Shown here one piece after another: positions 5,787 through 51,668 of a stretch of 64,000 bases of DNA. The position numbers and the translations under genes were made by a program. The notes under the pieces were generated by a model. The model was not told the DNA's origin. It did no database searches and saw only the letters and a list, made by a program, of their open reading frames with translations. How positions within the stretch are numbered: the stretch's first letter is position 1; the number at the start of each line of letters is the position of its first letter. The DNA comes from an uncultured Candidatus Saccharibacteria bacterium (lineage in GTDB: Bacteria > Patescibacteriota > WWE3 > UBA101185 > UBA10185). Location of the stretch: positions 8,606-72,605 of the forward strand of contig CAZXUJ010000004.1 in NCBI GenBank assembly GCA_964643995.1. The letters are read 5' to 3'.

Positions 5787-5806
5787 TGTGTATAAGTTTA
5801 CAAAAG

Positions 5807-6072: not shown

Positions 6073-6091
6073 CTTTTTAGAACACTTAACT

Positions 6092-6451: not shown

Positions 6452-6608
6452 ATTGGGCTTAAAGGTATGTAGGTTCGAACCTAGTTGTTCGAAATACACT
6501 TATGAAGCGGTGTCCAAATATGGTATTTTAAAGGGTGGCTTGTTAGGCTTTTGGAGAATCTGTCGTTGTAATCCATTTAGTAAGGGAGGTTACGATCCGG
6601 TAAAATGA
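6393..6608 (+). CDS. yidD: membrane protein insertion efficiency factor YidD
   Basis: 71 aa with the conserved YidD core (…YRLTISP…CRFEPSCSKY…KGGLLGFWRICRCNPFSKGGYDP). It overlaps the rnpA 3' end by 59 nt in another frame, so the true start may be further downstream. Confidence 0.7.
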   Translation: MKSLVLALLKFYRLTISPNRLGLKVCRFEPSCSKYTYEAVSKYGILKGGLLGFWRICRCNPFSKGGYDPVK

Positions 6609-7360: not shown

Positions 7361-7362
7361 TC

Positions 7363-8939: not shown

Positions 8940-8946
8940 ATTATTG

Positions 8947-11178: not shown

Positions 11179-11180
11179 AA

Positions 11181-11876
11181 TTATTCTATAATCGCAGGAT
11201 TTACAATTGCTGTCTTATAATCCTCTACACTTGTTCTAATTCTTTGACCATGCATGGAGCTTGGATTGTAAATGTCAAAGTATAATTCTACCAGTTCTTG
11301 TGTCGTAAGCTGTCGTGTTTTTACTCCTAGTCTGTTAAATTCCGCTGAGAGATGGTCGATTTTTGGCTGTATATCTCGTATGGAATCTTTTATAGCTTGA
11401 TCAACATTAACATTCACTCGTTTATTATGCGCTCCTAATAGCACCATGAACCATCCAAATGGGTTGGAGCTTTTGTTTACTTGATTAGTTCCTCCAGAAG
11501 ACACCACCACATAAAACTTCTTGTCTAATACGTCATTCCTTTCTATAACATCCTGAACGAATTCTCTATATGAAGTTGCTTGTTCTCGAAACAATGGGTC
11601 CGTAATTTTTCTTTCTAAGCGGTGAATTTTTTCAAGATATTTAGTAATATCTAACTTTTTTGATCTGATAACAATTTGAACAGGAAAGGTTATAGAATTG
11701 AGTAGCATTGCAAATGCCGAAATCATAGCATCTTGCTCAATCTCTGACAGTAAATCGAAATTAACAGCTGTTGTCTGCATCAATGCACTTACGGCTCCAC
11801 TTTTAAGCACCACTAAATTTTGTTTGATATCTAGAATATCTAAGTGTTCTTGGGTTGTTGCTTCAATAAATGACAT
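11181..11876 (-). CDS. hypothetical T4SS-associated protein, possibly a separately encoded VirB4 N-terminal-domain-like module
   Basis: 231-aa soluble ORF, translationally coupled: it stops 2 nt before the virB4-like start and starts 2 nt after the upstream membrane protein stop. No recognisable catalytic motif. Confidence 0.4.
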   Translation of the reverse strand: MSFIEATTQEHLDILDIKQNLVVLKSGAVSALMQTTAVNFDLLSEIEQDAMISAFAMLLNSITFPVQIVIRSKKLDITKYLEKIHRLERKITDPLFREQATSYREFVQDVIERNDVLDKKFYVVVSSGGTNQVNKSSNPFGWFMVLLGAHNKRVNVNVDQAIKDSIRDIQPKIDHLSAEFNRLGVKTRQLTTQELVELYFDIYNPSSMHGQRIRTSVEDYKTAIVNPAIIE

Positions 11877-11878
11877 GA

Positions 11879-13318: not shown

Positions 13319-13363
13319 ACGATCTCCCTAATTATGCACTATCGAGATTAGTTTTAATAGGAA

Positions 13364-14782
13364 TTATTTTCTAACGTCTTTTTTACCAAGTAACGCTGTT
13401 TCTAGCTGCTTAGGTAACTTCCATGCTTGGCGGTACCCATAAGCAAATGTGAATGGAACTACAAAAGGCATCAACATTATTGCAAAGCCTAGGTCTGCAG
13501 CGGCAGGTATGTCATTACTTGTAAATTCGAACCCTACACTACATGCATTTGATATAGCATCCCCTATAACCAGAGCTACAACCAAATTCGTAAATGCAAT
13601 TAAAGCTCTCATACCTAACATTGCCAATACTAACACACCTATCTCTTTAAACCAGTCGGTAGTTTTGGTTTCATTACCTGGAATTGCACCTATTGCAAAA
13701 GTAAATGGTGCCCCAATTGTCTTTACGATAATCTTCAAATAGATCATTAATACTTTTATTTGTATTGCAATATATGTTACTAACGCCGCTATGAAACCTA
13801 ATGAACTAAGTATCATAATAGATAATCCAGGGCCACCAGTTGCCGCTAGAATTATGAATGTACCTACAATTGCTAATATTCCAAACCCTGTGACTTCTGC
13901 CGCGGAAGTGCCTGCTAATGAATGTACTATCTCTATAGCACTTCCTCTTAGGGCGTAACCAATACTTGCGAATGTAGCTCCAATAGCGTAACTAAAGGTA
14001 ATTAAGAATAGTGCGATTACAATTCTTGGAATAGCATACTGTACTGTTACCATAGCTTGTGCACTTACTTTCTTGCGAGTCATTATCATGACGCCAGTGA
14101 CTATCATTATTAAGGCAATAAAGCCGTAGGAGGCATCCCTAACTATTTTCCACAGTTCAAAAGTAATGTTTAAAAGTGGTATACTACTATAGTCGGCTGC
14201 TGTAGAAGGATTTATCTGAGCATAGGCGGTTCCTACCAAAGGTACATCTTCAACTTGACGCTTAACATAGTACGCTAAATTTAGTGGCAATGGCTCACGA
14301 TTAAATTTTGTTAATTGCCCTCCAATATAAGCAAGGCTTCCTCCTGCCTGTATGCTGCTTCCTGGAGCTTGTACAACGCCACAGTTAGGATCGTCTCTAC
14401 AGTCCACATCATCAACATAAGAGTTTAGTAGCCCGGCGCAATATGCAGCATCTTCGTCGCGCATTTGACAAGCTGCTGGTAATTCACATGAAAATAATGT
14501 AGAGGATTCTTGAATGTAGTCCACACATCTAAAGACATTTGCAGGAGAGCCTCCGGTTGCTATCAAGAAAGGTAAATCTACAGCTAATGTTGTGCCTGCA
14601 TTTACCATTGTTCTTCTAATACTGATATCCTCTAATGCATCTCTAATTCTTTCAAACAGTCCTCTGTCTGGTTGGCAAAGCTCTTCAAGTGATATCGCAT
14701 GGGACTTAGGAGCATATACCGCAACGGACATAGTTAAAACTAAAATTGTTATTAAAGACTTTATGCTAAGTTTAGACATCAT
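13364..14782 (-). CDS. VirB6/TrbL-like polytopic T4SS channel protein with an N-terminal Cys-containing ectodomain
   Basis: 472 aa. Signal peptide (…VAVYAPKSHA), about a 200-aa ectodomain with 8 Cys, then 6-7 TM helices. This architecture matches VirB6-like proteins of Gram-positive T4SSs. Confidence 0.45.
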   Translation of the reverse strand: MMSKLSIKSLITILVLTMSVAVYAPKSHAISLEELCQPDRGLFERIRDALEDISIRRTMVNAGTTLAVDLPFLIATGGSPANVFRCVDYIQESSTLFSCELPAACQMRDEDAAYCAGLLNSYVDDVDCRDDPNCGVVQAPGSSIQAGGSLAYIGGQLTKFNREPLPLNLAYYVKRQVEDVPLVGTAYAQINPSTAADYSSIPLLNITFELWKIVRDASYGFIALIMIVTGVMIMTRKKVSAQAMVTVQYAIPRIVIALFLITFSYAIGATFASIGYALRGSAIEIVHSLAGTSAAEVTGFGILAIVGTFIILAATGGPGLSIMILSSLGFIAALVTYIAIQIKVLMIYLKIIVKTIGAPFTFAIGAIPGNETKTTDWFKEIGVLVLAMLGMRALIAFTNLVVALVIGDAISNACSVGFEFTSNDIPAAADLGFAIMLMPFVVPFTFAYGYRQAWKLPKQLETALLGKKDVRK

Positions 14783-14897
14783 AAATACGTTTCAAGTAAA
14801 ATTCTAGAATATAAATTACAACCTTACAATACTGACTTTTTTCGAATAGCCCAAGAGAGTTGGTGATTCTATTCAATTTTTATTATAGAATATAATT

Positions 14898-17800
14898 ATG
14901 GCGGATTCAAACCCCAATCCATTTTATTTCGGATATTACCCTGGAGAGCGCCCTGTTTACAGGGGCGGTGGTGGTAAACCAACTGGTCCTCTTTTTGATA
15001 TGCCTGCAGGAATGGATCTGTTGGGTGGTATAAATCAACTAGAGTATCAACTGGAGCGTGCTTTAGATACCGTTAACTTGCCTGGTTGGCTAAAGGAGAG
15101 ATATGTAAAAGATCTTACTGGTAGTTTAACCATTGGTGTTACTCCTGAAAAAAGAATAGACATGGAGGAGTTTGAGCGTCGTGGTACTGAGGCCTTAGAG
15201 GATATGCCTGGTGTGGCGGTTAAGATTTCTATCAATCCTGCGGATTGGGCAAAAGACCCTGGTGGAATGGCAAAAAAGACTGTGCAGGGTTGGGTAAGTG
15301 GTGTCTTTGATTTTGATGACTTTGATAGACGTTCTCGTTATAAGCTCTGGGCGACCATGCTCAGCGATGATAAACCTGATAACACACCATCAAATGGATC
15401 TTTCATAGATGATACGGTCAGAAGCTGGGAAACAAAATCACGCAAGGCTGCTGTGGCTGAAATGGAAAAAGCAGCCTTACGTTATGCAAATGGCCGTGGA
15501 ATGACCCCTGGGGTCGGTGACGATATAAGAGCAATCCGCAAAGATGTTCAACTAATAGGACGTGGTAAAAATCCCGATGATTATACCTCTACTATTCTCA
15601 GTCTGGATGATCCGATGTACTCGGGTGTTAAACAAGCCGTATTGGACTTTGAGCTGCATTCCACTAGCGTTAGGAAAAGGGAAGAATCTTATGATAATTT
15701 CGTGAAGAAGTCTCTTTATGCCATGGACGAGGACATAAAGAGTCAAGTTTTTCTTGCTAATGCAATGCAGACGCTCGACTTTAGCGATAGGCGTAATTGG
15801 GATGAGGATTTTGCTGCCAATGTTGATGCGCTAATGAAAAAACAAGTCCATGGTATGGATTGGGATGGTGCCAATGGTAGCTATTACTGGGAATCCGCAA
15901 ATTATGAGGAAAGTATTCGAAATCTTTATAGACGTAATGGTATTACTGATGCTGCAACACTAGATAGATATGTAGATCATGTTCAAGGATTACACTCCCA
16001 GGCAGAGTTATCACGTTATTTTGATAACTTACAGGCACAGATTGGGCAGGCTAGTAGAAATCTTGACGAGCTTTTAGTCTCAGAAAATCCCTTAAAAGCT
16101 ATAGATGCACAGGTTAATATGTTAGGGTTTCAAAAAACCTTAGGTCACGTAGATCAGAACGATATCAACTCATATATGACCACTTTGGATAGGTCTTTGC
16201 GCGCAGCTTATAGTGGTGATGGTGTCGCAAGAACTCAAACTGAACTGGATGCTTTAGTAAACAAGCGTATTTCTGAAATAAAGTCTTCTTTAGAAAATGT
16301 TAAAAGTTACTCTCCGGATCAGATAGAACACCTTATTAGTAAATTGCCGCTTGATCAACAGAAAAAAGTGCGTTCGGATATGCAACGCCATTTGGAATCT
16401 AGACGCGGATTAATAGGTACTAGACGAGAATTGGACAATATCTTGGGTGGTTTTGATGTAACCCAAATAAAAAATCTAAGTGTAGCTGAACGAAAAAAGT
16501 TGAAGAGGCAATTGAAGGAGCAACTTGATGGTGTAACTAAAGTTGGTCTAATAGGTGAAACTATTACAGGTGGTGATGTTCCATTGTGGGGGTACAGTGC
16601 TCAGAGAAAATATCTCCGCAACATTAATAATAGTTGGTTCAAGTATGACGAACATGAAAAGGCACTCGGTGGGATAACATCTAAAGGTAATGTACTTTTT
16701 TCGTTAATACCAAGATTAGAGGAAGAGCGTGCCCAACAAGAATGGGATGAGTTTTTTAATGCAATAGAAAAGGACGGCTTACTAAAGGGAATGTTAAACA
16801 CCTATGGTTGGAGTAGGTTGAAGGCTAAGTACAAATATCTTACTCCGAGTTATTACGTAGAAAAGGCACTCAGGAGTGTAAATAATTTTGGTTTGAAGAT
16901 TGAAGAAGCCCATAAAATCACTCGAAACATTAATGGTGTAAATGTAGATATGGATTATCTGTTCAAGATTGGAGGTGCCGGTGTTGGATTCCTTGGAGAT
17001 AGTACCGGAAAGACAACCAGGATTTTTGCCAATAGTTTTAAGGTTGAGTTTGATCTTCCAAGTGGTGTAAAAAAAGCCACTTTAATTGGTGGAGATCACT
17101 TTAATTTTCTAACCAACCATAAGTTCAAATCACAACTTAAAGAGTTGCGTGCTAGAAATCTTTTTAATCCAGATTCCTTTAAAGATCTGTTGATGTCAGG
17201 TTCTGAAGCAGAATTTTTACAAAAGCTACGTGCCGTGGGCTTTAAGATCCATGGGGATGCTGCAGCTGATCTGTTCAAGGAGTTTACTGCTTATAAACGT
17301 TGGTTGGATAAGCAGGCCGCCAAGTTAGGTGGCAACGCTAATGATCCAGCTTTTGCGTTTTCGATCTTCATGGGAGTTCATAACTATGACTTGATGCAAG
17401 ATCATTGGGGAGTATCAAGTGTTGTGGGCATAACAAAGAGATATGCCGGGCCGTTGCAGAAAGTCTACAAATATCTGAATGCCTTTCAAACAAGGTTATT
17501 CGAAACAACCTTAGGGCGTGTGCTCAATGTCGCCGTAAATTATAAAACACTTTTAGCACAAAAAATTGCACGTGGCTCATTAAGAATGTTTATTGAGCGT
17601 GCTATAACTAAATTACTTTCTTGGTTTGGACAGGCTGCTGCTTCAGAAACCGTAGTTGGCTCTTATCTTGTAAAAGCTATTGAGCCTGCTATTAGATATG
17701 TTGTAAAGAAAGTACTGGATGTTGGAGAGGCCGTTTTTAAAGCAGCATTAAAGTGGGACTTTTCAGGGATATTTGAGGAATTTGGTGCCGCCGTTAATGC

Positions 17801-18554
17801 CGCGTTCAAAATGATTTTAGGTGCTCTTGCGATACCAATTATAGTTATGGTTGGGGCAACGATTGTTATCACACATGTGCTTGGTGGTTTTGCTCCCGTC
17901 AATCCTGCTGTTATGGGTGGTGGTGAGTACACTTATGGGGGTCCTCCAGGTGGCGGTGTAAATGCAGCACCTCCTTGCCCAGAGGCAACCATAACACCAA
18001 GTAGTTGTATTTTTCGTGATGGTGGTGTCGTAAGCACAGGATCTTATACATCGAGTAATGAGACGGGACACGGATCAAATACCTACTGGAACAGTCTTGT
18101 AAACTGGGGTTATGTAAATGATCCTTGTGACTTTAATATACCAACCTCTGCCTCGGGTACGCCAGCAAGGGGTAGTTTGGTAGCAAGTAATGTTTGCAAT
18201 GGTTTGGATCCTGCAAGGAGTTACTATGGTTATGCTTCTGATAATGTTTCTAACAGTTGTTGGACTGTATATTTGCCAAATATTGCGGACAGTTGGTCTG
18301 TGGGTAATGTAGGGTCTGCTAACTTTGGTGGTTTAGCGGTAGCTACTGGTTATAATTCAGCCGGTGATGAAATATACAAAATGACTTTGTTACATATAGC
18401 TGTTGGTTCTGCTGTAACAGGCACCCTCGAACCTGGAGCCAAAGTAGCCGAAACAGCAGAATGGGGAGAAAACACTCATGTACATGTAGAGCTGGCAGAG
18501 TGGACTGGGAACGCATGGCAGGGGATACCCCCAGAAAGTGTTATTTGTAATTAG
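14898..18554 (+). CDS. large T4SS-associated protein with a degenerate C-terminal LytM/M23-like peptidoglycan hydrolase domain
   Basis: 1218 aa. N-terminal Gly-rich segment, a long alpha-helical charged region, and a TM helix near aa 970 (ILGALAIPIIVMVGATIVI). The Cys-rich C-terminal domain ends in …YKMTLLHIAVGS…GENTHVHVEL, resembling the M23 HxH motif. This is analogous to the large cell-wall hydrolases (PrgK/TcpG/CwlT) of Gram-positive conjugation systems. Confidence 0.45.
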   Translation: MADSNPNPFYFGYYPGERPVYRGGGGKPTGPLFDMPAGMDLLGGINQLEYQLERALDTVNLPGWLKERYVKDLTGSLTIGVTPEKRIDMEEFERRGTEALEDMPGVAVKISINPADWAKDPGGMAKKTVQGWVSGVFDFDDFDRRSRYKLWATMLSDDKPDNTPSNGSFIDDTVRSWETKSRKAAVAEMEKAALRYANGRGMTPGVGDDIRAIRKDVQLIGRGKNPDDYTSTILSLDDPMYSGVKQAVLDFELHSTSVRKREESYDNFVKKSLYAMDEDIKSQVFLANAMQTLDFSDRRNWDEDFAANVDALMKKQVHGMDWDGANGSYYWESANYEESIRNLYRRNGITDAATLDRYVDHVQGLHSQAELSRYFDNLQAQIGQASRNLDELLVSENPLKAIDAQVNMLGFQKTLGHVDQNDINSYMTTLDRSLRAAYSGDGVARTQTELDALVNKRISEIKSSLENVKSYSPDQIEHLISKLPLDQQKKVRSDMQRHLESRRGLIGTRRELDNILGGFDVTQIKNLSVAERKKLKRQLKEQLDGVTKVGLIGETITGGDVPLWGYSAQRKYLRNINNSWFKYDEHEKALGGITSKGNVLFSLIPRLEEERAQQEWDEFFNAIEKDGLLKGMLNTYGWSRLKAKYKYLTPSYYVEKALRSVNNFGLKIEEAHKITRNINGVNVDMDYLFKIGGAGVGFLGDSTGKTTRIFANSFKVEFDLPSGVKKATLIGGDHFNFLTNHKFKSQLKELRARNLFNPDSFKDLLMSGSEAEFLQKLRAVGFKIHGDAAADLFKEFTAYKRWLDKQAAKLGGNANDPAFAFSIFMGVHNYDLMQDHWGVSSVVGITKRYAGPLQKVYKYLNAFQTRLFETTLGRVLNVAVNYKTLLAQKIARGSLRMFIERAITKLLSWFGQAAASETVVGSYLVKAIEPAIRYVVKKVLDVGEAVFKAALKWDFSGIFEEFGAAVNAAFKMILGALAIPIIVMVGATIVITHVLGGFAPVNPAVMGGGEYTYGGPPGGGVNAAPPCPEATITPSSCIFRDGGVVSTGSYTSSNETGHGSNTYWNSLVNWGYVNDPCDFNIPTSASGTPARGSLVASNVCNGLDPARSYYGYASDNVSNSCWTVYLPNIADSWSVGNVGSANFGGLAVATGYNSAGDEIYKMTLLHIAVGSAVTGTLEPGAKVAETAEWGENTHVHVELAEWTGNAWQGIPPESVICN

Positions 18555-18569
18555 TTTGAAAGTGCAAAG

Positions 18570-19079
18570 TTGATGTCTTCATTTATAAACAAGCTAAAAG
18601 CAAACAAAGGACTGTTGTTGATAATATTTGGGTTGTTAATAATAGTACTGATTTTTATATTCGACCTAGCTCGTCTTAATGAAAAGTCTACTACACAAAC
18701 TCCCAAGATTGTAACTCAGGAAGATGCTCTAAAACCGGGAGATATTGTTCAATTGATAAAAATGACCCCTGCTGAAGGATTAAAGCATCAAACATTGGAT
18801 CCTTTCCAGGTGATTACTTTTGAATTTAGTGATCCGGTAGATTTGTCTACCATAGAAATCTCTGTATTGCCGGCTATTGATCATAACGTACGCGTTTTGG
18901 AAAATGATAAGTCTAAGGTTGTGGTATTACCAAAAGCCTCAGGTTGGCTCCCATACACAGAATATCAGATAAGAATAACAAATCTTAGATCAACTGACGG
19001 TAAGGGGTTATCTGCAACAGCGAGCTATAAATACAAAAATACTCCTCCGGAAATAAAGTTTAACGAATTACCCTACTAA
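18570..19079 (+). CDS. membrane-anchored protein with an Ig-like ectodomain (hypothetical)
   Basis: 169 aa, one N-terminal TM (LLLIIFGLLIIVLIFIF), then a beta-rich domain. Confidence 0.4.
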   Translation: MMSSFINKLKANKGLLLIIFGLLIIVLIFIFDLARLNEKSTTQTPKIVTQEDALKPGDIVQLIKMTPAEGLKHQTLDPFQVITFEFSDPVDLSTIEISVLPAIDHNVRVLENDKSKVVVLPKASGWLPYTEYQIRITNLRSTDGKGLSATASYKYKNTPPEIKFNELPY

Positions 19080-19083
19080 AGTA

Positions 19084-19554
19084 TTAGTTACACCCTGAAA
19101 TACCACTAAGTATTGGAGGTCCGCTTACCGTGGAGTTCGTTAAAAATTCGCAAAATCTTTCCTGCATAAGTCCAAAAACTCCGCCTCCAACCAGTTCTAT
19201 ATTGAAGCCAAATGCACCAGCTATTATCGAAAACATTGTGTAAAGCCCAGTCACTGCAACCAGTCCCCACACAGCATATGTTAAAGTGTTTTTTGCTCCC
19301 AGTGCTCCCTTAGGATCACCCAATGAAGTTGAATATTTGTAGGAAGCGAAACCTACAATCGCAACAAATACTGCCCCCGCGGATAAAATTAGCATGTTTA
19401 TAACACCGATAAACGGACATACTATTTGTACGATTGAAGGATCATCATAGTTTACGTTGTTACAATTTTGTGCAAAAGAAATCCTTGGAAAAGTAAAGGT
19501 TGTTAGAACAAATACTCCCAGTACTAATAAAGTTTTAAAACGTTGGAATACCAT
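19084..19554 (-). CDS. VirB2/TrbC-like pilin paralog with extra N- and C-terminal Cys-containing extensions
   Basis: 156 aa. Signal peptide, then a two-helix hairpin with the family loop motif KYSTSLGDPKGALGAKNTL (compare ITSRGDAKAAEQARGAL, MESLGDPKAVDSAKNAL in the neighbours). Confidence 0.5.
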   Translation of the reverse strand: MVFQRFKTLLVLGVFVLTTFTFPRISFAQNCNNVNYDDPSIVQIVCPFIGVINMLILSAGAVFVAIVGFASYKYSTSLGDPKGALGAKNTLTYAVWGLVAVTGLYTMFSIIAGAFGFNIELVGGGVFGLMQERFCEFLTNSTVSGPPILSGISGCN

Positions 19555-19864
19555 TCTGTAAGTCCGTGTTTGACACGCCTATTGAATTAAATACCACTGC
19601 CTTTATGGTTAATGCTCCTCCGCAAAGAAGAAATGCCAGTATACTATACTTGAGTGCATTTTTTGCACTGTCTACTGCTTTTGGATCACCAAGGCTTTCC
19701 ATAAATTTTATTCCCGAAATAATAATAACTATTAATGATATTGCTATACCTGATCCTATTATATAGTTAAGCACTACAGACATAATTGCACCTAAACTCT
19801 CATACTGAGTTCCCGTAATATTAGATTCTTCTGCAATTAAATTAGTTAAAATACCCACAATCAC
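19535..19864 (-). CDS. VirB2/TrbC-like pilin paralog
   Basis: 109 aa, two hydrophobic helices flanking FMESLGDPKAVDSAKNALKYS. C-terminus …NGIPTF similar to …NNVTPF of the next paralog. Confidence 0.5.
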   Translation of the reverse strand: MIVGILTNLIAEESNITGTQYESLGAIMSVVLNYIIGSGIAISLIVIIISGIKFMESLGDPKAVDSAKNALKYSILAFLLCGGALTIKAVVFNSIGVSNTDLQNGIPTF

Positions 19865-19885
19865 CTACCTTTATCACTGAAGCCT

Positions 19886-19909
19886 CACCCCTCGGGGTGA
19901 GGCATAAAA
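19886..19909. terminator. perfect GC-rich hairpin (GCCTCACCCC-TCGG-GGTGAGGC) between pilin paralogs
   Basis: 10-bp inverted repeat seen directly. On the minus (coding) strand it is preceded, rather than followed, by a U-run. It may therefore act as an attenuator or mRNA-stability element rather than a full intrinsic terminator. Confidence 0.4.
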
Positions 19910-19927
19910 TAAGTTCAAATTCAGAGT

Positions 19928-20269
19928 CTAGAACGGAGTTACGTTGTTTAAGCCTGCTGTATTTGTACCACCTGTTAATACGTTTGCTACAACATATCTG
20001 ATTGTTACTGCTGCTATAACAACTATGAAACCGATAACTGCGTTTGTTAATGCACCTCTAGCTTGTTCAGCTGCTTTGGCATCACCTCTAGAAGTTATGT
20101 ACTGTATACCTCCTAAAATCAAGAATACAACTGTCAAAGCTATACCAATACCCAACACGATATTTGTTATTATCGTAAAGATCTGTGCTAAAGTAACTTT
20201 TGTACCAAGAGCTAAAGGATTCACAACAGTGCTTGTCGAAACTGCTTGTGCTAATACTTCTCTTAACAT
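19928..20269 (-). CDS. VirB2/TrbC-like pilin (candidate major pilin)
   Basis: 113 aa. Long leader, two hydrophobic helices separated by QYITSRGDAKAAEQARGALTNA. Strong SD GGAGGTG 7 nt upstream. Its own AT-rich upstream region (20270-20381) and a downstream hairpin. Confidence 0.55.
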   Translation of the reverse strand: MLREVLAQAVSTSTVVNPLALGTKVTLAQIFTIITNIVLGIGIALTVVFLILGGIQYITSRGDAKAAEQARGALTNAVIGFIVVIAAVTIRYVVANVLTGGTNTAGLNNVTPF

Positions 20270-20381
20270 TTTCCTACACCTCCTTCTATAGATTACTAAA
20301 AAAATTTACATACTGATGCTTATAAATAAGCTATATATATTATAGCAAATTTATTACTTTGATATTGAACTAATCATTCTC

Positions 20382-21254
20382 CTACTGTCCTAGGAAGTTT
20401 TTCAGAATAATTCTCAAAATGGATAGTGCTAAAAGTAAGAATAATAGTCCGGATATAGCTGCTGTAAGTTCTTCTATTCCTCTCTTTACTTTCATTGGAT
20501 CGCCTTGACTGGTCATTATGGTGTAACTGGCAATTGCAACTGTAGGTATACCTAGCAATCCTATAGCTATGGGTAACATAAGGCGGTACATGTTTTGTAA
20601 GAAGCTCTCATAGTCCACGATTGATCCATCATATTCATTCGGAGTTATAGGTTCGTCAAAGATAGCAAAGGGATCGCCACAGTAACTGTTACCATCGGTG
20701 TATTGTGTGCAGTTAACGCCACCGCAACATCCTCCTGGTACCGGTGTCCCCCCTGAAACGCAGACATTCCCGTATGGTATACAGCCCTGGCCACCACAAA
20801 TACCTCCTCCGTTTTGTTGCACAGTACAGGACCCCCCTGCACACTGATAGTCATACGTACATGGAGACCCATCTGGTAACACATTTCCACAGGAGCCTAG
20901 TGGTGGTGTTATACATTGCCAGTTCCCGCCAACATCCTGACCACACTGTTGTCCTTGGCTACAACCCCCTTCCTCATCACATTCATTGAAAGTTCCGGAA
21001 TCTCCACATGTTATGGTACATGCCGCACTTGGTTGACATGTTCCAGGTTGTGGTGGTGCTGGAGGTGTTTCCGCCGGATTAACACAGACATATCCCGCCG
21101 CACAATCGACATCAGACCATGGTCCTCCACATGAGCCATCACCATCATCACATGAACTGCCTGTAGTTCCATCTCCTGCGTAAGTTTTATTGGAACTTAA
21201 GGTAGCCACGAGCAAGAACAATATTGAAATTTTCATTATGTCTTTAATGATCAC
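20382..21254 (-). CDS. secreted Cys/Gly-rich protein with a C-terminal VirB2-like pilin domain
   Basis: 290 aa. Signal peptide (probable start at MKISILF…, about 21236). About 180 aa with 36 Cys. C-terminal …YESFLQNMYRLMLPIAIGLLGIPTVAIASYTIMTSQGDPMKVKRGIEELTAAISGLLFLLLALSILRIILKNFLGQ is homologous to the small pilins. Confidence 0.5.
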   Translation of the reverse strand: MIIKDIMKISILFLLVATLSSNKTYAGDGTTGSSCDDGDGSCGGPWSDVDCAAGYVCVNPAETPPAPPQPGTCQPSAACTITCGDSGTFNECDEEGGCSQGQQCGQDVGGNWQCITPPLGSCGNVLPDGSPCTYDYQCAGGSCTVQQNGGGICGGQGCIPYGNVCVSGGTPVPGGCCGGVNCTQYTDGNSYCGDPFAIFDEPITPNEYDGSIVDYESFLQNMYRLMLPIAIGLLGIPTVAIASYTIMTSQGDPMKVKRGIEELTAAISGLLFLLLALSILRIILKNFLGQ

Positions 21255-21259
21255 TTTAT

Positions 21260-22825
21260 CTAATTTCCAAGAAAGTTATTTAATACTATTCTAAGTATTG
21301 TCAAAGCTAATAGCAAATATAATATTCCTGCTCCAGTGGCAGTTAAGTCTTCTGTGCCTTCTTTTAATTGGTCTGGGTTGCCTCGACTTGTCATAATTCT
21401 ATAGCCAGCAAGCGTGACTAGAGGTATTCCAGCTATCCCTATGGCTAGAGGAAGCAACAGTTTATATAAGTTTGACAGCATGCTTTCAAAGTCCACTATG
21501 GCTCCTACATAGGTGGGTGGTATGGCCTCCTCATCTTCATATGTAGTTTCGTCTGAAATTCCTCCGCTACCTGCTGTACAGTCGCAAGTGCCTCCATTAT
21601 CAGGTTCGTTAGGATTTATTGGTATACAGGTACCTCCAAAAGTACATATATCTTGACATATTTGGTCTCCTGCAACACCCACATCGCAAATAGGTTCGGC
21701 ACTAATGCATATCTGTGTGTTTGCCCATGCGTTAAACGCGCATGTTTGGCTGCTATCACAGCATGGTGTGTTTATTTGATTACACTCCTCTCCGACAGTA
21801 GCACAATTTGGTCCTGGGCCACTTCCACATACCGTATGATCAGCACATATTGGGTTTGATCCGGCCTGACAGTATTGTGTGCTTGGGCATCCGCCTATAC
21901 CACAGTCTGTGGCTTCGGGTGTACCAGTTACGGGACTAGTACAAGGTGTGCCTGTGGGGATACATTGTGCTCTATTATTGCAGGTAGGCTCTCCCCCATT
22001 ACTTTCGCATCGTTGCCCTGCGGTACACCCGCCGTCGCCACAGGTGTCGGGATCTACTGTTGTTGTATACCAGTATACTGGAGGTCCGCATGATGCCGTA
22101 CATTCTTCACGCGTATTGCATATGCCACCACCACCTAAAGTTTCACATCTTTGTGAGTCGCCACAAACGCCTTGTCCACATTGTGTAGAATCCACGGGTG
22201 ACTGGTACCAGTATGCCGGTGAACATGCTTGTTGAGCGTAGCATGCGCTTCTTGAAACACATTGGGGTGTGCCACTTCCGTTAGACTCACACCTTTGACC
22301 GGCTGCACAAGTATCCTCGCCGCATGTATCCGGTTCTACTGCCGTTTGATACCAATAAACATTAGGTCCGCATGGATTTGGTGGGGGAGGGGCGGGAGTT
22401 TGGCAGTTGGCTGCGGCTGATACAGTCTCAGTAGTGCAGTTGCCACTAGTATTACAGTACTCCCAAGTGTAGGTTATGTTTGCAACAATATCGGCTGAGT
22501 GTGTGTTCACTGTGGTTGAAAAATTCCAACCCGGTGGGCATGGTGACCCCCAGTCGCAAGTGCATCCGAAATTGGTACATGTAGCATTTCCTCCCCATCC
22601 GTCTGATTCAGAGTAGATAACACTTCCATTTCTTGTAACAACCTCTTCTACGTCTATATCGCTGTAGTAGCCCTCCTCTGGTACTAGAACGTAGTCAACA
22701 TCTATGCCACTTGCCCCTAAAGTACACTCCGTAATCTGTACGCTAACACTGCCTGCGGCATGTGCGCTTCCTAAACCATGAAACCAGAAAGTTATAAAAA
22801 ATAGAAAAATAAATAAATATTTCAT
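21260..22825 (-). CDS. secreted modular Cys-rich repeat protein with a C-terminal VirB2-like pilin domain
   Basis: 521 aa. Signal peptide, about a 120-aa N-terminal domain shared with the 436-aa paralog (…CDWGSPCP…), three ~45-aa repeats YWYxxxVxPDTCGxxxCxxGQRCESNG…C, more Cys-rich modules, then the pilin-like C-terminus (…IMTSRGNPDQLKEGTEDLTATGAGILYLLLALTILRIVLNNFLGN). Confidence 0.5.
   Translation of the reverse strand: MKYLFIFLFFITFWFHGLGSAHAAGSVSVQITECTLGASGIDVDYVLVPEEGYYSDIDVEEVVTRNGSVIYSESDGWGGNATCTNFGCTCDWGSPCPPGWNFSTTVNTHSADIVANITYTWEYCNTSGNCTTETVSAAANCQTPAPPPPNPCGPNVYWYQTAVEPDTCGEDTCAAGQRCESNGSGTPQCVSRSACYAQQACSPAYWYQSPVDSTQCGQGVCGDSQRCETLGGGGICNTREECTASCGPPVYWYTTTVDPDTCGDGGCTAGQRCESNGGEPTCNNRAQCIPTGTPCTSPVTGTPEATDCGIGGCPSTQYCQAGSNPICADHTVCGSGPGPNCATVGEECNQINTPCCDSSQTCAFNAWANTQICISAEPICDVGVAGDQICQDICTFGGTCIPINPNEPDNGGTCDCTAGSGGISDETTYEDEEAIPPTYVGAIVDFESMLSNLYKLLLPLAIGIAGIPLVTLAGYRIMTSRGNPDQLKEGTEDLTATGAGILYLLLALTILRIVLNNFLGN
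21970..22378 (-). repeat. three tandem ~135-bp coding repeats (Cys-rich module) inside the 521-aa gene
   Basis: Protein-level triple repeat PxYWYxxxVxPDTCG…GQRCESNG…C at about aa 150-285. Coordinates approximate. Confidence 0.45.
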
Positions 22826-27678: not shown

Positions 27679-28380
27679 TTAATATAACTGGGCGTATTTC
27701 ACTAATTTTTGGTAAAGCCCAACCCTATGGTCGGCCCCTACTGGGAATACAGCACAAGTAAACTTTTTTAGATGTTTTATAATCTGTGCAGCCATATAAT
27801 TTTCTCGTTTTTCGAACCACTCTTCATAATTCTTCCAATAAATAGCAAGATTTTTGTCTGCTGAATACTTTTCCAATATTGGAATGCACGTACCGATAGC
27901 TGTCGTGTGTTTTATTGTGATTAGTTTGTCCATGTCATTACTGTTAATTTCTCTTATGGTGCCCTTGTTTGCCATTTCCCGTTGTCGCTCAACTGTTGCA
28001 AAGTACAATTTCAACTTATCTCGCTCATCCTTCGTAGGTTTGGATGAAGTCAATATATTATGTAAAAATGAGAAGGCTTTTCCATACCCATCACTAGAGA
28101 TTTTCTTTGCGAATATCTTGCTTCTATTAGGTAAGTCTACGGGTATAACAGTACAAGTATGTTCTTGATGGTACCAATTAATTGCAGATCCCTCCTGCCC
28201 TTCAAGTTCCTCCCCAAAGGGTATACTCTTTTGCATTGTATTTTTGTGCATTTCTGGAGGTAACTCTTCAAAGATTACTTCAGGTCGAATTTGCTCTATC
28301 GCTTTGTAAAGGTCCAGCGCAGTATATCGCTGTGTGCTTTGATGAATTGTTCCTATAATTATCAGTTTTGTCATTTTCAC
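27679..28380 (-). CDS. TraB/PrgY/GumN/TIKI-family protein
   Basis: 233 aa. N-terminal IIGTIHQS (GTxH motif) and C-terminal VFPVGADHRVGL (GAxH motif), characteristic of the TraB/TIKI superfamily. Confidence 0.45.
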   Translation of the reverse strand: MKMTKLIIIGTIHQSTQRYTALDLYKAIEQIRPEVIFEELPPEMHKNTMQKSIPFGEELEGQEGSAINWYHQEHTCTVIPVDLPNRSKIFAKKISSDGYGKAFSFLHNILTSSKPTKDERDKLKLYFATVERQREMANKGTIREINSNDMDKLITIKHTTAIGTCIPILEKYSADKNLAIYWKNYEEWFEKRENYMAAQIIKHLKKFTCAVFPVGADHRVGLYQKLVKYAQLY

Positions 28381-28500
28381 GATTTCCTATATGCCTTTTA
28401 AAAGTTTTCCAATGGCGGAGGGCATGGGGCGATATTGGAAAATATCTATCCATGTATCCAATGAGTATTTTATCAAAAGAAAATATATTTAGAAAAAACT

Positions 28501-28545
28501 AAACCCCCTCTTGGTCAACTTGCTTTTTGTTAACCATTTGGGGGT
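28501..28545 (-). terminator. stem-loop (AAACCCCC…GGGGGTTT) plus U-run downstream of the small membrane gene
   Basis: 8-bp GC-rich inverted repeat with a long loop, followed on the minus strand by AGTTTTTTC. Confidence 0.3.
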
Positions 28546-28563
28546 TTTGGGCAGGGGGTTGTT

Positions 28564-28746
28564 TTAATCCTCTTTATCCTTGCCTTTGCTTTTCAGATAG
28601 AGGCTGAACAGATTCAGGAGGAAAGCAACAAACCAAAGCCCTGCGATTACCAGATTAAACACATTCTTTTCTGGGTTCATCATGTACAAACCAAAGTTCA
28701 TGATGACCAGAATGACATTCAAGATGACCAGAATGACTTTCAACAT
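28564..28746 (-). CDS. small two-TM membrane protein (hypothetical, holin-like size)
   Basis: 60 aa, two hydrophobic helices, K/D/E-rich C-terminus, followed by a terminator-like hairpin. Confidence 0.35.
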   Translation of the reverse strand: MLKVILVILNVILVIMNFGLYMMNPEKNVFNLVIAGLWFVAFLLNLFSLYLKSKGKDKED

Positions 28747-28981
28747 TTTCTCAGCTCCTTATTTAGATTGGCGCTTGGATTTAAGCGCAAGGATTACAGT
28801 TTTCTATACCCTATAGTATATTACAGGATAATAGATTTGTCAATGTAGATTAGTCTTTTCTACTTATAGGATAGGCACAGAGTATCATATTCTTCATATT
28901 TTGGCACTTCTTAAGACAACTATCCCACCACATTAAAAGAAAACAACCACGCCCAAAGGGTGTGGTAAAATTCCAAGTTTT

Positions 28982-29959
28982 GTGGTGGGGAGTTGGCGGA
29001 AATGCGCTGTTGCTTGTACAATGCTGATTAGGAAACTGCCCTACTCTAAACATATGTACCAAGAAAAGGCTAGTTTCTTAGATAAGTTAATAAACACTCT
29101 TTTATCCCCTTTTGACAGATTTATTTTCAAATCAAAGCATAATATTGGTGATGATAGTTACATGCAGATTTTGAATGGTGGAAAAGATATAACTAAACTT
29201 AGTGAAAAGTGGCTTAAATACTACTATTTACATATCCACTCAAAGCTATATGAAATTATGTGTGGCGTTTATGATGGTTATGATAACCAGCCAGATTATG
29301 TATTTGTCTCAGTAGATACTGAACTAGATGACTTATACCAAGAATTGTGGAATACATGGAGAGTAATTGATAGATACCCCTTTATTGACGCATTAAAACT
29401 TGGTCAATATAACTATTTCAAATCTCTAAATTATGACACTTCATATAGGGTTAAAATGTGGCGAGGAGTTAAAAAGGGATTTGTTGGAGATATTGAAAGT
29501 ATTGGAAAGGAATTATCACTAGAACCCCTACCAAATGACTTGAAACTAGCCTTTACAAAGATTGATAAACTGCTTTTAGAACATATAACCAAAAAGAATT
29601 TAGTACTTTTTGGCAACATCATAAAACACAAAAAAGTTACCCTAAACAAAGACCAAAATACAATAACAATTGAGGGTAGGAAGCCAATAAATATAACATC
29701 AAATGAGTTAAGGCTACTTAGGCTTATGCTAGAAAGTATTGATAGCACAGTTACATATAAACAAATAGCCGAAACCCTTAATATAACCGCATATTTTGGT
29801 AAAGTTGATAAAGCCTTAAAAGATAATATTCAACAAATCAAAAGGGATATTTTTGAGACACTGGTTTCCAATAATGTAGACAAAGCAACTGCAAATGAGA
29901 TAAGAGACTACTTAGAACCAGTAAGAAATACAGGCTATATAGTGCGCAGTAACAACTAA
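28982..29959 (+). CDS. element-encoded protein with a C-terminal OmpR/PhoB-like winged-helix DNA-binding domain
   Basis: 325 aa. C-terminal …TIEGRKPINITSNELRLLRLMLESIDSTVTYKQIAETL… resembles trans_reg_C. The N-terminal domain is unknown. The true start may be at a downstream Met (for example MYQEK…, about 29054). Confidence 0.4.
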   Translation: MVGSWRKCAVACTMLIRKLPYSKHMYQEKASFLDKLINTLLSPFDRFIFKSKHNIGDDSYMQILNGGKDITKLSEKWLKYYYLHIHSKLYEIMCGVYDGYDNQPDYVFVSVDTELDDLYQELWNTWRVIDRYPFIDALKLGQYNYFKSLNYDTSYRVKMWRGVKKGFVGDIESIGKELSLEPLPNDLKLAFTKIDKLLLEHITKKNLVLFGNIIKHKKVTLNKDQNTITIEGRKPINITSNELRLLRLMLESIDSTVTYKQIAETLNITAYFGKVDKALKDNIQQIKRDIFETLVSNNVDKATANEIRDYLEPVRNTGYIVRSNN

Positions 29960-30214
29960 ACACAAATTTCCCCATAAAATTCCCCATCATTTTCACATGT
30001 AAATAACTTGCTAAAAACCCTATTGTCAGCCCATGCAGGAAGCAAGTGGGCAGAAACTCAAGCCAAAAAAAGAACAACTAAACAAAATCAAAGAAGTCTT
30101 TAATCAAGATTACAACTTAAATCTTTCTGATAAAGAAGTTTTGGATTGCTATATCTCATTTTTCTACTTAGGCAGGGCAATTTTTAACTTCAACTTACAG
30201 AAAGGCAGTGCTAT

Positions 30215-31144
30215 ATGAAAAATGTGGTTAATCCCCATGGTCGCCAAAACGGCGGTAGCCGTGGCGACCATATTAAACTAGATAATACCGTTTTTTATGA
30301 CCGCAAAAAATTAAGGGGTGAAAAAGTGCTTCATAATGGCAAAACTTATGAAGTAAGTAGACTCAAAGTAATAAAATCCAAAGACACAATAGAAGTGTAT
30401 GACTATGAAAAGCCCGTTATCCTAAACCAGCCACATTTTAAGACCAAATTAGACAAGCCCTTGGATGAACTACCCCCTGAACTTAGGGCAAAGATTGAAA
30501 AGGAAAAGCAAAGCAGAAAAGCTGAATACAAAAAGCGAAGTGCAATAAACGCTATCAATAACATAAGGCGACTTGTTGATTGTAACTTTAACAGCAAAAG
30601 CAAATTTGTAACCCTAACTTTTGCAGATACAAACAAAATTGATATCAGGGATATTAAACAAACTCATGGGGTTTTTAAGCGATTTATTCAACGCCTTAAA
30701 ACATATTTTCCTAAACTTAAATATGTCGCGATTCCAGAGTTTCAAGACAAAAAGCAAAGGGGTGCAATTCATTACCACATGATTAGTAATCTTTTATATA
30801 CTCCAAATGAGACATTAGCCAAAATCTGGCGATATGGTTTTGTAAACATTAAATCCATTGAACATGTATCAAATATTGGTGCATATTTAGCAAAGTATCT
30901 CGCTAAAGATATTGATGATAATCGCTTTGGTAGTGCTAAAAAAGTATTAAGAAGTAAGTATCTTGAACACCCACAAGTGGAATACAGTAAAAACGCTTTA
31001 AAGATAATTAACAAATATAACTTAAGAAATCGCCAGCCAATTTATGTTAAAAAGTACAAAAGTGAAATGCATGGTGGTAATATATCCATAAGTTTGTTTG
31101 ATTTAAAAAACCCTATCCTGCCCACTAAGGATAGTAATGACTGA
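30215..31144 (+). CDS. rep: rolling-circle replication initiator (HUH endonuclease, pC194/Rep_1-like)
   Basis: 309 aa. Motif I FVTLTF, motif II AIHYHMIS (HUH), and motif III GAYLAKYLAKDIDD with the catalytic Tyr, matching the pC194-family pattern. Confidence 0.7.
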   Translation: MKNVVNPHGRQNGGSRGDHIKLDNTVFYDRKKLRGEKVLHNGKTYEVSRLKVIKSKDTIEVYDYEKPVILNQPHFKTKLDKPLDELPPELRAKIEKEKQSRKAEYKKRSAINAINNIRRLVDCNFNSKSKFVTLTFADTNKIDIRDIKQTHGVFKRFIQRLKTYFPKLKYVAIPEFQDKKQRGAIHYHMISNLLYTPNETLAKIWRYGFVNIKSIEHVSNIGAYLAKYLAKDIDDNRFGSAKKVLRSKYLEHPQVEYSKNALKIINKYNLRNRQPIYVKKYKSEMHGGNISISLFDLKNPILPTKDSND

Positions 31145-32666
31145 AAATAATCAACTTAAATATTTTATTTATACTAGAAAATCCTCTGATGAAGGCAATA
31201 AGCAAGTTCAATCTTTAGAGACTCAAGAAAGGCTTTGTTTTGAACTGGCTAAAAATAATAACTTAACTGTTGTTGATATTCTTAAAGAGTCAAAATCTGC
31301 TATGGATGATGGTAATAGACCAACTTTTGATTTGTTAATTTCAAGAATTAAATCAGGCGAAGCGGATGCATTAATTGTTGTTGATATTGATAGACTAGCA
31401 AGAAATCTTGTTGAAGCAGGATTTTTATACAAGTTAATGGAAACAGGGTTTATCAAAGAAATTAGAACTCTTAGCAAGAATTTTAATGCTGTATCAGACT
31501 TGTTTTACATGGGATTTGAGTTTTTGAGGGCAACACAATATTCAAGGGATTTATCAGTTAAAGTTAAGCGTGGTGTTCAAACTAAACTCTTAAATGGGGA
31601 ATATCCAAGTTATGCCCCTATTGGTTATGTAAATATTGATAGAAAGATTTATCCCGACCCTATCAGAAGTGTGTATATCAAAAAGGCTTATGAACTATAC
31701 GCCACAAATACTTATTCAGAAAAAGCACTTGCTAATATTCTTTTTGAAGATGGCTTTAGAACGCGTGTAGGAAATATAAAAGTTGTTAAGGCAGTAATTC
31801 ATAGAATATTAACTGACCCTGTATATCGTGGAGATATTAAACGCAGTGGAGTGATTTATGAGGGTATACATGAGGGAATTGTTAGCCGAGAACTGTTTGA
31901 ACGAGTACAAGCTGTTTTAAAGGGCAAGAATAGGGCTAAAAAGCGTACACATGACTTTTTGTATAGGGGTTATCTAACATGTGCTGTCTGTGGTTGTAAT
32001 ATTACTGCTACTCAAAAGGGAGATAAATACAAATATTATTACTGTACCAATGGCAAAGGACTGTGTAGTGAACACAAAGACTACTTAGATGAAACTGATA
32101 TACAAGACTTAGTAGCATCGTCTTTTACTGGCATTATCAAAGATAAAAAACTAGCTGATTTATCTTTAGAAACTTATGGCAAAGAACTGTTAGAACAAGG
32201 AGGAAACCAAATAACCATAAAACAAAACTTAGAAAGCCAACTTAAAAACATTGAAAACAAGCTTTCTAACTTACTAGACGCATTTATTGATAATTCCATT
32301 GATAAAACTACATATAACAACAAACAAAACACATTAAAGTCAGAAAAATTGCTTATCCAAGAACAACTCGCCAAGCTTCCAAAAGAAACCCCACAAACAA
32401 CTTTGGAAAAACTGAAAACCCTTAAAGAATACTGTTATGACTTGCCAAACATGTTTATTGAGGGTGAAGAACCAGTTAAATCTGATTTATTGAAATCTGT
32501 ACTTTGGAAAATATCTATTCAAAACAAACAAATAGCGTCAGTACAATATAATTTGCCCTATCAAAGACTGGCAGAAGCCTCTAAAAGTGGTGATTTTGAC
32601 AACTGGCGGAGAGGGAGGGATTCGAACCCTCGTGCGAGTTACCCCGCGCATAGTTTTCGAGACTAG
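31137..32666 (+). CDS. large serine recombinase (integrase)
   Basis: 509 aa. N-terminal resolvase catalytic domain (YTRKSSDEG… with the Ser nucleophile, …DIDRLARN…), a recombinase domain, a zinc-ribbon (CAVCGC…CTNGKGLC), and a coiled-coil C-terminus. The ORF reads 63 nt into the tRNA gene. Confidence 0.8.
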   Translation: MTENNQLKYFIYTRKSSDEGNKQVQSLETQERLCFELAKNNNLTVVDILKESKSAMDDGNRPTFDLLISRIKSGEADALIVVDIDRLARNLVEAGFLYKLMETGFIKEIRTLSKNFNAVSDLFYMGFEFLRATQYSRDLSVKVKRGVQTKLLNGEYPSYAPIGYVNIDRKIYPDPIRSVYIKKAYELYATNTYSEKALANILFEDGFRTRVGNIKVVKAVIHRILTDPVYRGDIKRSGVIYEGIHEGIVSRELFERVQAVLKGKNRAKKRTHDFLYRGYLTCAVCGCNITATQKGDKYKYYYCTNGKGLCSEHKDYLDETDIQDLVASSFTGIIKDKKLADLSLETYGKELLEQGGNQITIKQNLESQLKNIENKLSNLLDAFIDNSIDKTTYNNKQNTLKSEKLLIQEQLAKLPKETPQTTLEKLKTLKEYCYDLPNMFIEGEEPVKSDLLKSVLWKISIQNKQIASVQYNLPYQRLAEASKSGDFDNWRRGRDSNPRASYPAHSFRD

Positions 32667-32693
32667 CCAATTAGACCACTCTTGCACCTCTCC
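32604..32693 (-). tRNA. tRNA-Ser (anticodon CGA), type II with a long variable arm, CCA encoded
   Basis: Hand-folded: acceptor GGAGAGG/CCTCTCC, discriminator G plus CCA. D-stem CAA/TTG with a GG in the loop. Anticodon loop CTCGAAA. Variable arm TGCGCG…CTCGCA. T-arm GAGGG-TTCGAAT-CCCTC. Confidence 0.7.
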
Positions 32694-51627: not shown

Positions 51628-51668
51628 TTGATTTATTCTCGCATATTTCCCGCAGAAACTCTATACTT

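Follow-up and report, generated by a model that had tools for sequence, protein, structure and literature searches.

The locus considered here raises a simple question: is the small group of genes that runs into a tRNA-Ser gene a mobile element that is still complete, and if so, how could it move and be copied? It occupies positions 28413-32603 of a 64,000-nt stretch of contig CAZXUJ010000004.1 (assembly GCA_964643995.1), which was analysed as a whole and is called the window below. A first-pass annotation of the window had proposed a compact integrative element at tRNA-Ser, carrying a rolling-circle replication initiator (Rep), a large serine recombinase (LSR) and a winged-helix protein, in a host resembling members of the Candidate Phyla Radiation (CPR). 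Copies with identical ends in different hosts and a differing site occupancy within one species support this proposal, and a CPR-like host is inferred from the named relatives of the element and from the arrangement of secretion genes near dnaA. The region is probably an intact integrative rolling-circle replicon of 4,191 bp, in other words an integrated mini-plasmid, of a bacterium of the CPR/Patescibacteria type.

Ends and target site of the element

The attachment sites, the target and the two main genes are as follows.

28413..28420, no strand: attL crossover core TGGCGGAG, exact direct repeat of 32604-32611, antisense of the tRNA 3' end CTCCGCCA
32604..32611, no strand: attR crossover core TGGCGGAG, antisense of the CTCCGCCA end of the tRNA
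32604..32693, minus strand: intact host tRNA-Ser(CGA), giving the B' half of attB (ARAGORN, Rfam)
31137..32666, plus strand: large serine recombinase, 509 aa (Pfam, PHROG, alignment)
28421..28502, plus strand: P' arm of attP, the last 27 LSR codons in the excised circle (...RAWGDIGKYLSMYPMSILSKENIFRKN, then stop), read from the open frame across attP
30215..31144, plus strand: HUH rolling-circle initiator, 309 aa, PF23343 REP_ORF2-G2P, two-tyrosine type (Pfam, PHROG, alignment)
...GATTTTGACAACTGGCGGAGGGCATGGGGCGATATTGG...: attP junction expected in the circle, derived from the element ends
...AAAAGTTTTCCAATGGCGGAGAGGGAGGGATTCG...: empty attB expected, derived from the element ends

The element measures 4,191 bp between the 8-bp direct repeats at 28413 and 32604, and not about 4.3 kb as estimated in the first-pass annotation. 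By itself, the repeated 8-mer is weak evidence for the ends, since it occurs three times in the window against 0.61 expected and 2 of 100 shuffles also reach three; the comparison with relatives settles them. In six to seven relatives (L002, L003, L084, L012, L092 and L098, with L021 more distant), homology to the window opens exactly at 28413. The left flanks of these relatives are unrelated, and their right side continues through the 32604 core into a tRNA-Ser. The closer ones (L002/L003, L084, L012/L018, L092 and L098) come from other samples and share about 82-88% nucleotide identity with the element. The target tRNA varies among copies, with anticodon TGA in L012 and L092, GCT in the more distant L021, and CGA in the window, and the tRNA-Ser end is present as sequence variants in the cut contigs L002, L084 and L098.

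The bases 3' of the left core (GGCATGGGGCGATATTGG...) are kept among copies at other tRNA-Ser genes, whatever the tRNA. As they are conserved irrespective of the tRNA, positions 28421-28429 belong to the attP arm of the element and are not a decayed tRNA copy. The degenerate tRNA copy previously placed at 28413-28429 is therefore an exact copy over 28413-28420 and attP arm DNA beyond. In the junctions that were read closely, the identity between the element ends spans 6-10 bp, TGGCGG(AG)(GG), and the junction between two tandem elements named E2 and E3 (...AACAAC-TGGCGG-GACACTG...) reduces the shared crossover region to TGGCGG. Att sites of this short kind, with few crossover bases in common, are expected of LSRs. 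The element also has what is expected of an integrative and mobilizable element (IME), namely an integrase of its own and a specific site with defined ends. Its G+C content is 32-34%, against about 36-42% in the flanks. An apparent dyad in attP, ATTTTGACAACTGGCG / GGCGATATTGGAAAAT, was rejected because its centre lies outside the shared core. On the left, the insertion lies 33 nt upstream of the start codon of a minus-strand TraB/GumN-like host gene (27679-28380; spacer 28381-28412). As the element is inserted between them, this gene is cut off from the tRNA and from any earlier promoter.

The tRNA-Ser(CGA) predicted earlier is the single tRNA that ARAGORN finds in the window; its score with the Rfam tRNA model is 49.7 bits (gathering score 29), and its 7-bp acceptor stem and encoded CCA are intact. 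The LSR exceeds the Pfam gathering scores of Resolvase PF00239 (57.6 vs 23.3), Recombinase PF07508 (43.6 vs 21.1) and Zn_ribbon_recom PF13408 (29.1 vs 25.3), and matches phrog_95 'integrase'. Among PDB sequences, the TnpX catalytic domain is its sole match. The catalytic serine and the zinc ribbon that had been read from the sequence are borne out: R14 and S16 of the YTRKSSDE motif as well as C282, C285, C287, C303 and C310 of the zinc ribbon are invariant in 15 homologues. The open reading frame (ORF) reads into the 3' part of the tRNA gene, as described before, with an overlap of 63 nt, and its last 18 codons are antisense tRNA.

The position of the crossover within the LSR gene has a consequence for the protein. 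Conservation stops at W490-R491 (32604-32609), whose codons TGG CGG are the att core; both residues are invariant in the 15 homologues. The residues that follow vary with the neighbour and are usually xRDSNPR, encoded by the antisense T arm, or come from the next element in tandem arrays. The P arm of attP encodes ...SKSGDFDN and the core W490-R491, so that the C-terminus reads ...WRRAWGDIGKYLSMYPMSILSKENIFRKN in the circle form and ...WRRGRDSNPRASYPAHSFRD in the integrated form. Because the LSR gene crosses attP, integration exchanges the C-terminal tail: the 27-residue tail is moved 4.2 kb off and an antisense-tRNA peptide takes its place. The circle-form frame is open for 25-29 codons in four independent copies. 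The first 21 codons of the P' arm show nine base changes, seven at codon position 3, two at position 1 and none at position 2, a skew with a probability of roughly 0.008 if positions were equal. Nevertheless, a coding constraint on this tail is suggestive only, as the similarity of L098 to the P' arm ends after about 35 nt. Serine integrases act by a 2-nt staggered cut and subunit rotation. A less likely idea is that the tail exchange gives the LSR a built-in direction switch, which would also be compatible with the transfer of the element by a host secretion system considered below.

Replication protein, accessory genes and candidate origin

The Rep scores 73.3 bits with PF23343 REP_ORF2-G2P (cut-off 27.8) and matches phrog_3584 and phrog_3419, both of which are annotated as replication initiation. 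Motif I, FVTLTF at 131-136, agrees with the alignment consensus, F136 being invariant in the closer set, and H186-Y-H188, Y224-xxx-Y228 and K231 do not vary among 19 sequences, the most distant of which is 23% identical. The pC194/Rep_1 family has one catalytic tyrosine plus a glutamate. Membership of the Rep in this family is ruled out, given that the Pfam profile search gave no Rep_1, Rep_2 or Rep_trans match at E<=0.01 and that two tyrosines are conserved (Y-x3-Y). The earlier reading of a pC194-like HUH Rep thus stands as far as HUH, FVTLTF and HYH are concerned; the protein is not pC194-like and belongs to the two-tyrosine PF23343/PHA00330 group. In tblastn searches, it is 30-35% identical, over about two thirds of its length, to the Reps of pGTG5, pHT926 and Bacillus plasmids. 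A homologue is essentially the sole sizeable gene on pGTG5 and pHT926, which measure 1.5-1.8 kb. Since its homologues are the main gene of such tiny plasmids, the Rep is predicted to be of the replicase type.

Reps annotated in genomes of Microviridae and of inovirus-like phages share 25-42% identity with it as well. On one alternative reading, the element would derive from a filamentous phage or another single-stranded DNA (ssDNA) phage, as a satellite or a defective provirus that has retained nothing but genes for replication and integration and is packaged by a helper, as are RS1 and TLC of Vibrio cholerae. PF23343 and Phage_CRI Reps are phage-type initiators, sister elements carry a Phage_CRI Rep, and the best matches in phage databases belong to Reps of inovirus-like ('bajarodino') phages and of Microviridae. 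The presence of inoviruses in CPR has been predicted (PMC6813254), and the layout of the 60-aa protein encoded near the left end resembles, as read from its sequence, that of a small coat protein. However, Pfam and PHROG searches of the element and of three sister elements revealed no morphogenesis ATPase (pI/Zot) and no capsid or coat family, and the small hydrophobic gene is not kept among relatives. A search of IMG/VR with the Rep gave no close relative, and the two contigs found there with the LSR have no terminal overlap. We consider a phage satellite quite improbable and retain the integrative replicon.

The remaining features of the element are the following.

29054..29959, plus strand: 301-aa element-specific protein, helical N-terminal domain and C-terminal OmpR/PhoB-type winged helix
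30033..30218, plus strand: 61-aa helical-hairpin protein, conserved ORF whose stop overlaps the Rep start (ATGA)
28564..28746, minus strand: variable cargo gene, ORF for a 60-aa hydrophobic protein
28501..28547, no strand: hairpin with 19-bp arms between the circle-form LSR tail ORF and the convergent cargo gene (inverted repeat I14)
28915..28999, plus strand: conserved non-coding hairpin block, core ACCACGCCCAAAGGGTGTGGT at 28946-28966 (comparison, folding)
28993..29022, plus strand: weak promoter-like TTGGCG-18-TACAAT upstream of the four-gene operon (consensus scan, 9/12 matches)

The four plus-strand genes directly upstream of the tRNA are packed or overlapping and encode proteins of 301, 61, 309 and 509 aa. 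All four match their homologues in length and motifs and look intact. The start of the 301-aa gene at 29054 was set by alignment with relatives and by a 301-aa product on record. The winged-helix protein expected upstream of the Rep is therefore present, as a 301-aa gene and not as the 325-aa ORF first assigned. In its AlphaFold2 model, with a predicted local distance difference test (pLDDT) score of 81, the N-terminal helical domain has no structural match. The winged helix-turn-helix reaches template-modelling (TM) scores of 0.64-0.75 with the DNA-binding domains of PhoB and GlnR, and that of OmpR was also matched by Foldseek. We found 22 homologues of this protein, all at least 46% identical, and all those with an examined genomic neighbourhood belong to elements of the same type. 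From its modelled fold, the protein is likely a regulator or an origin-binding accessory protein. A direct repeat of 15-18 nt, TTGGAAAATATCTAT(C/T)CA, occurs at 28435-28452 and 32504-32521 and is partly kept in L002. Measured from the att core of the circle, its copies would be at about +22 and -100 nt; one is part of the LSR coding sequence, the other of its tail. These repeats could be a binding site for the OmpR-type protein.

The 61-aa protein is kept even in the divergent element E1 of L018 (43% identity). Its AlphaFold2 model consists of two helices (pLDDT 82), for which the structural search gave no match. The 60-aa cargo protein has no family match in Pfam or PHROG, and its slot is occupied by unrelated genes in relatives. 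A promoter-like TTGACA-17-TATACT was found by consensus scan at 28843-28815 on the minus strand, by the cargo gene.

The block at 28915-28999, of about 85 nt, is nearly invariant in relatives whose proteins are just 53-88% identical. It is present once per element, at the same position, in every close relative, and its core is absent from the rest of the window, with 0 occurrences expected by chance. As ssDNA it folds with -21.1 kcal/mol (z = -4.2). It is a candidate for the origin and/or an operator. The hairpin at 28501-28547 is different in nature: L002 and L084 have a hairpin at the same place with a different stem sequence, and because of its position between convergent ORFs it is probably a bidirectional terminator. 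It was rejected as an origin, as it lies between convergent ORFs, its stem is not conserved and the 7-mer is weak. This 7-mer, CAACTTG in the loop region, resembles the phiX174/pC194 nick region.

Taken together, these features suggest the following cycle. The LSR, with a directionality factor, would recombine attL with attR and release a 4,191-bp circle, which would hold the complete LSR gene and the terminator. The Rep would nick the origin, proposed at 28915-28999, and copy the circle by rolling-circle replication. The LSR would then reinsert the circle, through attP and the acceptor end, at any tRNA-Ser 3' end with CTCCGCCA. The tRNA would be left whole because the crossover lies in its last bases, the two sites having in common only TGGCGG(AG), in which the CCA end, the discriminator base and the first bases of the acceptor stem are read in antisense. 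Comparison of the copies supports excision and reinsertion, whereas the circular intermediate, its copying by the Rep, the origin and what the accessory proteins do are inferred.

Distribution, mobility and the host secretion system

Homologues of the LSR are numerous. At E<=1e-30, 962 were retrieved in the scored set; few have a source name, and these are mostly Gottesman-, Roizman- and Woesebacteria. The closest named relative, at 77% identity, is in a WWE3 genome. A scan of species-representative genomes gave 64 LSR loci, most of them titled CPR/Patescibacteria, including WWE3, Saccharibacteria, Levy-, Gottesman-, Ames-, Roizman-, Pace-, Moran- and Doudnabacteria. About 14 of the 64 are titled Gammaproteobacteria, Pseudomonadales, Rickettsiales or Thermococci; mislabelling is suspected for these and could not be confirmed.

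For counting, we separated LSRs with at least 32% identity over nearly the full length (group 1, n=46, almost all from CPR/Patescibacteria) from those with 25-31% identity (group 2, n=9). An HUH Rep lies directly upstream of the LSR in 42 of the 46 loci of group 1 (37 of PF23343 type and 5 of Phage_CRI type), an antisense tRNA at the LSR 3' end in 38, and both in 37. The tRNAs comprise 19 Ser, 10 Gln, 2 Ala and 2 Pro, with one each of Asp, Trp, Arg, Glu and His. Where detectable by a cruder repeat search, tRNA-end direct repeats of 8-21 bp lie 3.7-6.7 kb upstream. In group 2, mostly titled Actinobacteria and Coriobacteriia with some Saccharimonadales and Deltaproteobacteria, six of nine loci have the antisense tRNA and none has the upstream HUH Rep or, consequently, both, so the tRNA linkage is kept and the Rep is not. 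The arrangement of Rep, LSR and tRNA is the rule for this LSR clade in CPR genomes. The expectation that a Rep would be paired with a serine integrase only uncommonly is thus contradicted by the frequency of the pairing in group 1.

CPR/Patescibacteria make up a large share of bacterial diversity, and their mobile elements are barely described. The 4-6-kb elements with an HUH Rep and a tRNA-targeting serine integrase form a widespread family, found in WWE3, Saccharibacteria, Microgenomates and Parcubacteria. We found no description of such elements in CPR in the literature, the coverage of which was incomplete, so that this is absence of evidence only; the large family appears to be undescribed. 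Its mode of integration is unusual, as a serine and not a tyrosine recombinase acts at a tRNA and the att core lies within the last conserved codons of the integrase. A compact native replicon with a serine integrase and a conserved tRNA-end attB would be suited to genetic tools for CPR bacteria, which are hard to manipulate.

Evidence for mobility comes from two contigs, L012 and L018, which represent one host species, as their flanks (encoding nucleoside diphosphate kinase, a phosphoesterase and arginyl-tRNA synthetase) are 98.9% identical. In L012, the element E3, with a Phage_CRI Rep and a serine recombinase, is located at tRNA-Ser(GGA), and the window-type element E2 at tRNA-Ser(TGA). In L018, E3 is 99.4% identical to the L012 copy and is located at tRNA-Ser(TGA), directly behind E2, while tRNA-Ser(GGA) is occupied by a third Rep-LSR element. 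As nearly identical copies of E3 are found at two tRNA-Ser genes in one species and tandem arrays occur at tRNA-Ser genes, the family has moved recently.

The sister elements E1 and E3 were located at 245-3971 and 9570-14206 of L018 and at 1-3971 of L012. E1 of L018 encodes proteins of 251 and 55 aa, a 375-aa PF23343 Rep and a 536-aa LSR; E3 encodes proteins of 248 and 182 aa, a Phage_CRI Rep and a recombinase of 596-619 aa. The same layout is built from different parts, which indicates that Rep types are exchanged as modules while the integration scheme stays the same. Left of attL, remnants of 22-29 nt of a recombinase 3' end are found in L012/L018 (5033-5054), L089, L090 and L092 (7084 and 7792-7814), and make the junction resemble a complete attP. 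L092 has an extra core, with a LigT-like gene between two cores. These remnants and extra cores are signs of tandem accretion followed by decay. L006-L010 (JGI 3300013122-3300013137) have the same four-gene module with a recombinase shortened to 383 aa, homology ending at 32259. Downstream, they carry GT87, 2'-5' RNA ligase-like and SIR2-like genes, and then a second pair of Phage_CRI Rep and resolvase; they may be a rearranged or composite element. Positions 1-60 of L003, a Logan contig, are very GC-rich, unlike the remainder, and may be a chimeric contig end.

Several results weigh against an intact and active integrative replicon. Neither a circular (attP) contig nor an empty attB was found for the window host in reference genomes, JGI metagenomes and IMG/VR, and the attL site is occupied in SRR8893623, the likely source sample. 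A search of reference genomes with the flanking antiporter gave no empty site and no relatives of the host, and exact-protein look-ups showed that the LSR, the Rep and the TraB-like flank protein are not on record, while those with the antiporter and the glycosyltransferase led to SRR8893623 alone. In the JGI metagenomes, the attP junction pattern matched just attL sites with a remnant P arm; in IMG/VR, it had zero matches. The two IMG/VR contigs with the LSR, of which one ends integrated at a tRNA-Gln and the other is cut inside the LSR gene, are not circles, as they lack terminal overlap, and the Rep has no relatives in IMG/VR. The B half-site of attB, in the host flank, is not conserved between hosts, and attP is without clear dyad symmetry. 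No recombination directionality factor is recognisable among the element proteins, the 61-aa and 301-aa proteins being only candidates. No nick site or origin was found by similarity to pGTG5 and pHT926, and the block at 28915-28999, in which no nick motif was recognised, has no similarity to either. Finally, Coluzzi et al. (2017, PMC5357655) read the PHA00330 (pHT926-type) domain of 21 streptococcal IMEs as that of a non-canonical relaxase. The contig of L001, which ends at the tRNA 3' end, was not counted as an assembly branch at the junction, as repeats (tRNA-Ser 3' ends and sibling elements) explain it equally.

The absence of a circle or empty site for this host, together with the decayed remnants in relatives, would fit an ancient immobile remnant beside a tRNA, with an LSR overlap that arose by chance. 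Such a remnant had been expected to show as the same genes without tRNA linkage in conserved flanks, whereas the relatives retain the linkage with different flanks. Moreover, all genes are intact with their catalytic residues, identical ends occur in unrelated flanks, E3 is found at different tRNA genes in one species, and the tRNA overlap is a family-wide rule. The remnant is largely refuted and hardly tenable beside the integrative replicon.

The proposed relaxase function of the Rep superfamily leads to another possibility: the element would be an IME whose HUH protein is mainly a conjugative relaxase nicking an oriT, the circle would be exported through a chromosomal type IV secretion system (T4SS) of the host, and replication would be secondary. 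The window does contain such a system. Its dnaA-proximal cluster at 4389-22825 has the layout reported for Patescibacteria, in a survey that found almost no relaxases (PMC12102498).

4389-5786, minus strand: dnaA; yidC, khpB/jag and dnaN are also in the cluster
8947-11178, minus strand: VirB4-like ATPase of the CD1110 family, with a TraC-like ORF
11879-13318, minus strand: PrgI/VirB3-like ORF
14898-18554: ORF of 1218 aa, no family match
about 19535-20269 and 21260-22825: pilin-like ORFs

No relaxase or coupling protein was seen in this cluster. The VirB4, PrgI and pilin genes are in favour of export. However, no coupling protein (TcpA, VirD4) is found in the element or among the T4SS-cluster ORFs scanned in the window, and Rep homologues replicate tiny plasmids without any transfer function. 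As the T4SS is near-universal in Patescibacteria, its co-occurrence with the element is uninformative, and the roles of relaxase and replicase are not mutually exclusive. A mainly conjugative role is therefore unlikely in our view, and an integrative replicon copied by its Rep is preferred. We give a similarly low probability to a broader proposal, in which the Rep-LSR mini-elements would be the cargo so far missing for the near-universal dnaA-proximal T4SS of Patescibacteria and the PF23343/Phage_CRI HUH protein would double as a 'very different relaxase'. If this were true, elements of 4-6 kb would use a chromosomal pore to pass from one CPR cell to another, or between CPR cells and their hosts. 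The family is a concrete candidate for what, if anything, this T4SS transfers. Elsewhere in the window, an ATP-dependent DNA ligase of archaeal/eukaryote type and a Chlor_Arch_YYY-domain membrane protein (47276-49072 and 51606-53678) are consistent with a CPR-like host.

Comparison with known systems

Actinomycete integrative and conjugative elements (AICEs), pSAM2 among them, insert at tRNA genes, excise as circles and undergo rolling-circle replication by RepSA before transfer. They have an FtsK-like Tra protein, a size of 9-24 kb and mostly tyrosine integrases. No FtsK or Tra domain is present in any ORF of the element, and the RepSA profile matches the Rep weakly, below its cut-off (20.3 vs 34 bits). 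An attP inside a coding sequence, with integration altering the protein, is also known from SSV1-type archaeal integrases and from mycobacteriophage integration-dependent immunity, both of which rely on tyrosine recombinases. Integration of SSV1 breaks its int gene into two parts; in the element, by contrast, the exchange is limited to the last ~27 LSR codons. The plasmids pGTG5 (Geobacillus, 1540 bp) and pHT926 (Brevibacillus, 1786 bp) have a related Rep as their main gene; unlike the element, they are free plasmids without integrase and without detectable origin similarity to it.

The streptococcal IMEs resemble the element in several respects: they are small, they combine an integrase with an HUH protein of the pHT926 Rep superfamily, the integrase gene is at an end and faces outward, and tandem accretion occurs (PMC5357655). 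In contrast to the element, about 89% of them use tyrosine integrases, their serine integrases disrupt protein-coding genes, most carry a TcpA coupling protein and their hosts are Firmicutes (PMC5357655). The element targets a tRNA 3' end, has no coupling protein and measures only 4.2 kb.

The closest precedent for the integration module is provided by the ssrA islands of Dehalococcoides (McMurdie et al. 2011, PMC3146451). These islands likewise have a large serine recombinase, DsiB, at one end. As with the LSR of the window, the 3' end of dsiB always overlaps att and reads into ssrA or into the next island; the possibility that only the circle carries a complete integrase gene had already been raised in that study. 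Further features in common are tandem accretion and, at the far boundary, a short direct repeat of the 3' end of the RNA gene. The islands differ from the element in being larger, in targeting tmRNA and in carrying DsiA, a second and small serine recombinase, within a six-gene integration module; they have no HUH Rep and occur in another host phylum (PMC3146451). The element has a single recombinase gene, without a second small serine recombinase, and targets tRNA-Ser and not ssrA. It is a variation on IMEs, AICEs and the Dehalococcoides ssrA islands and not a new category.

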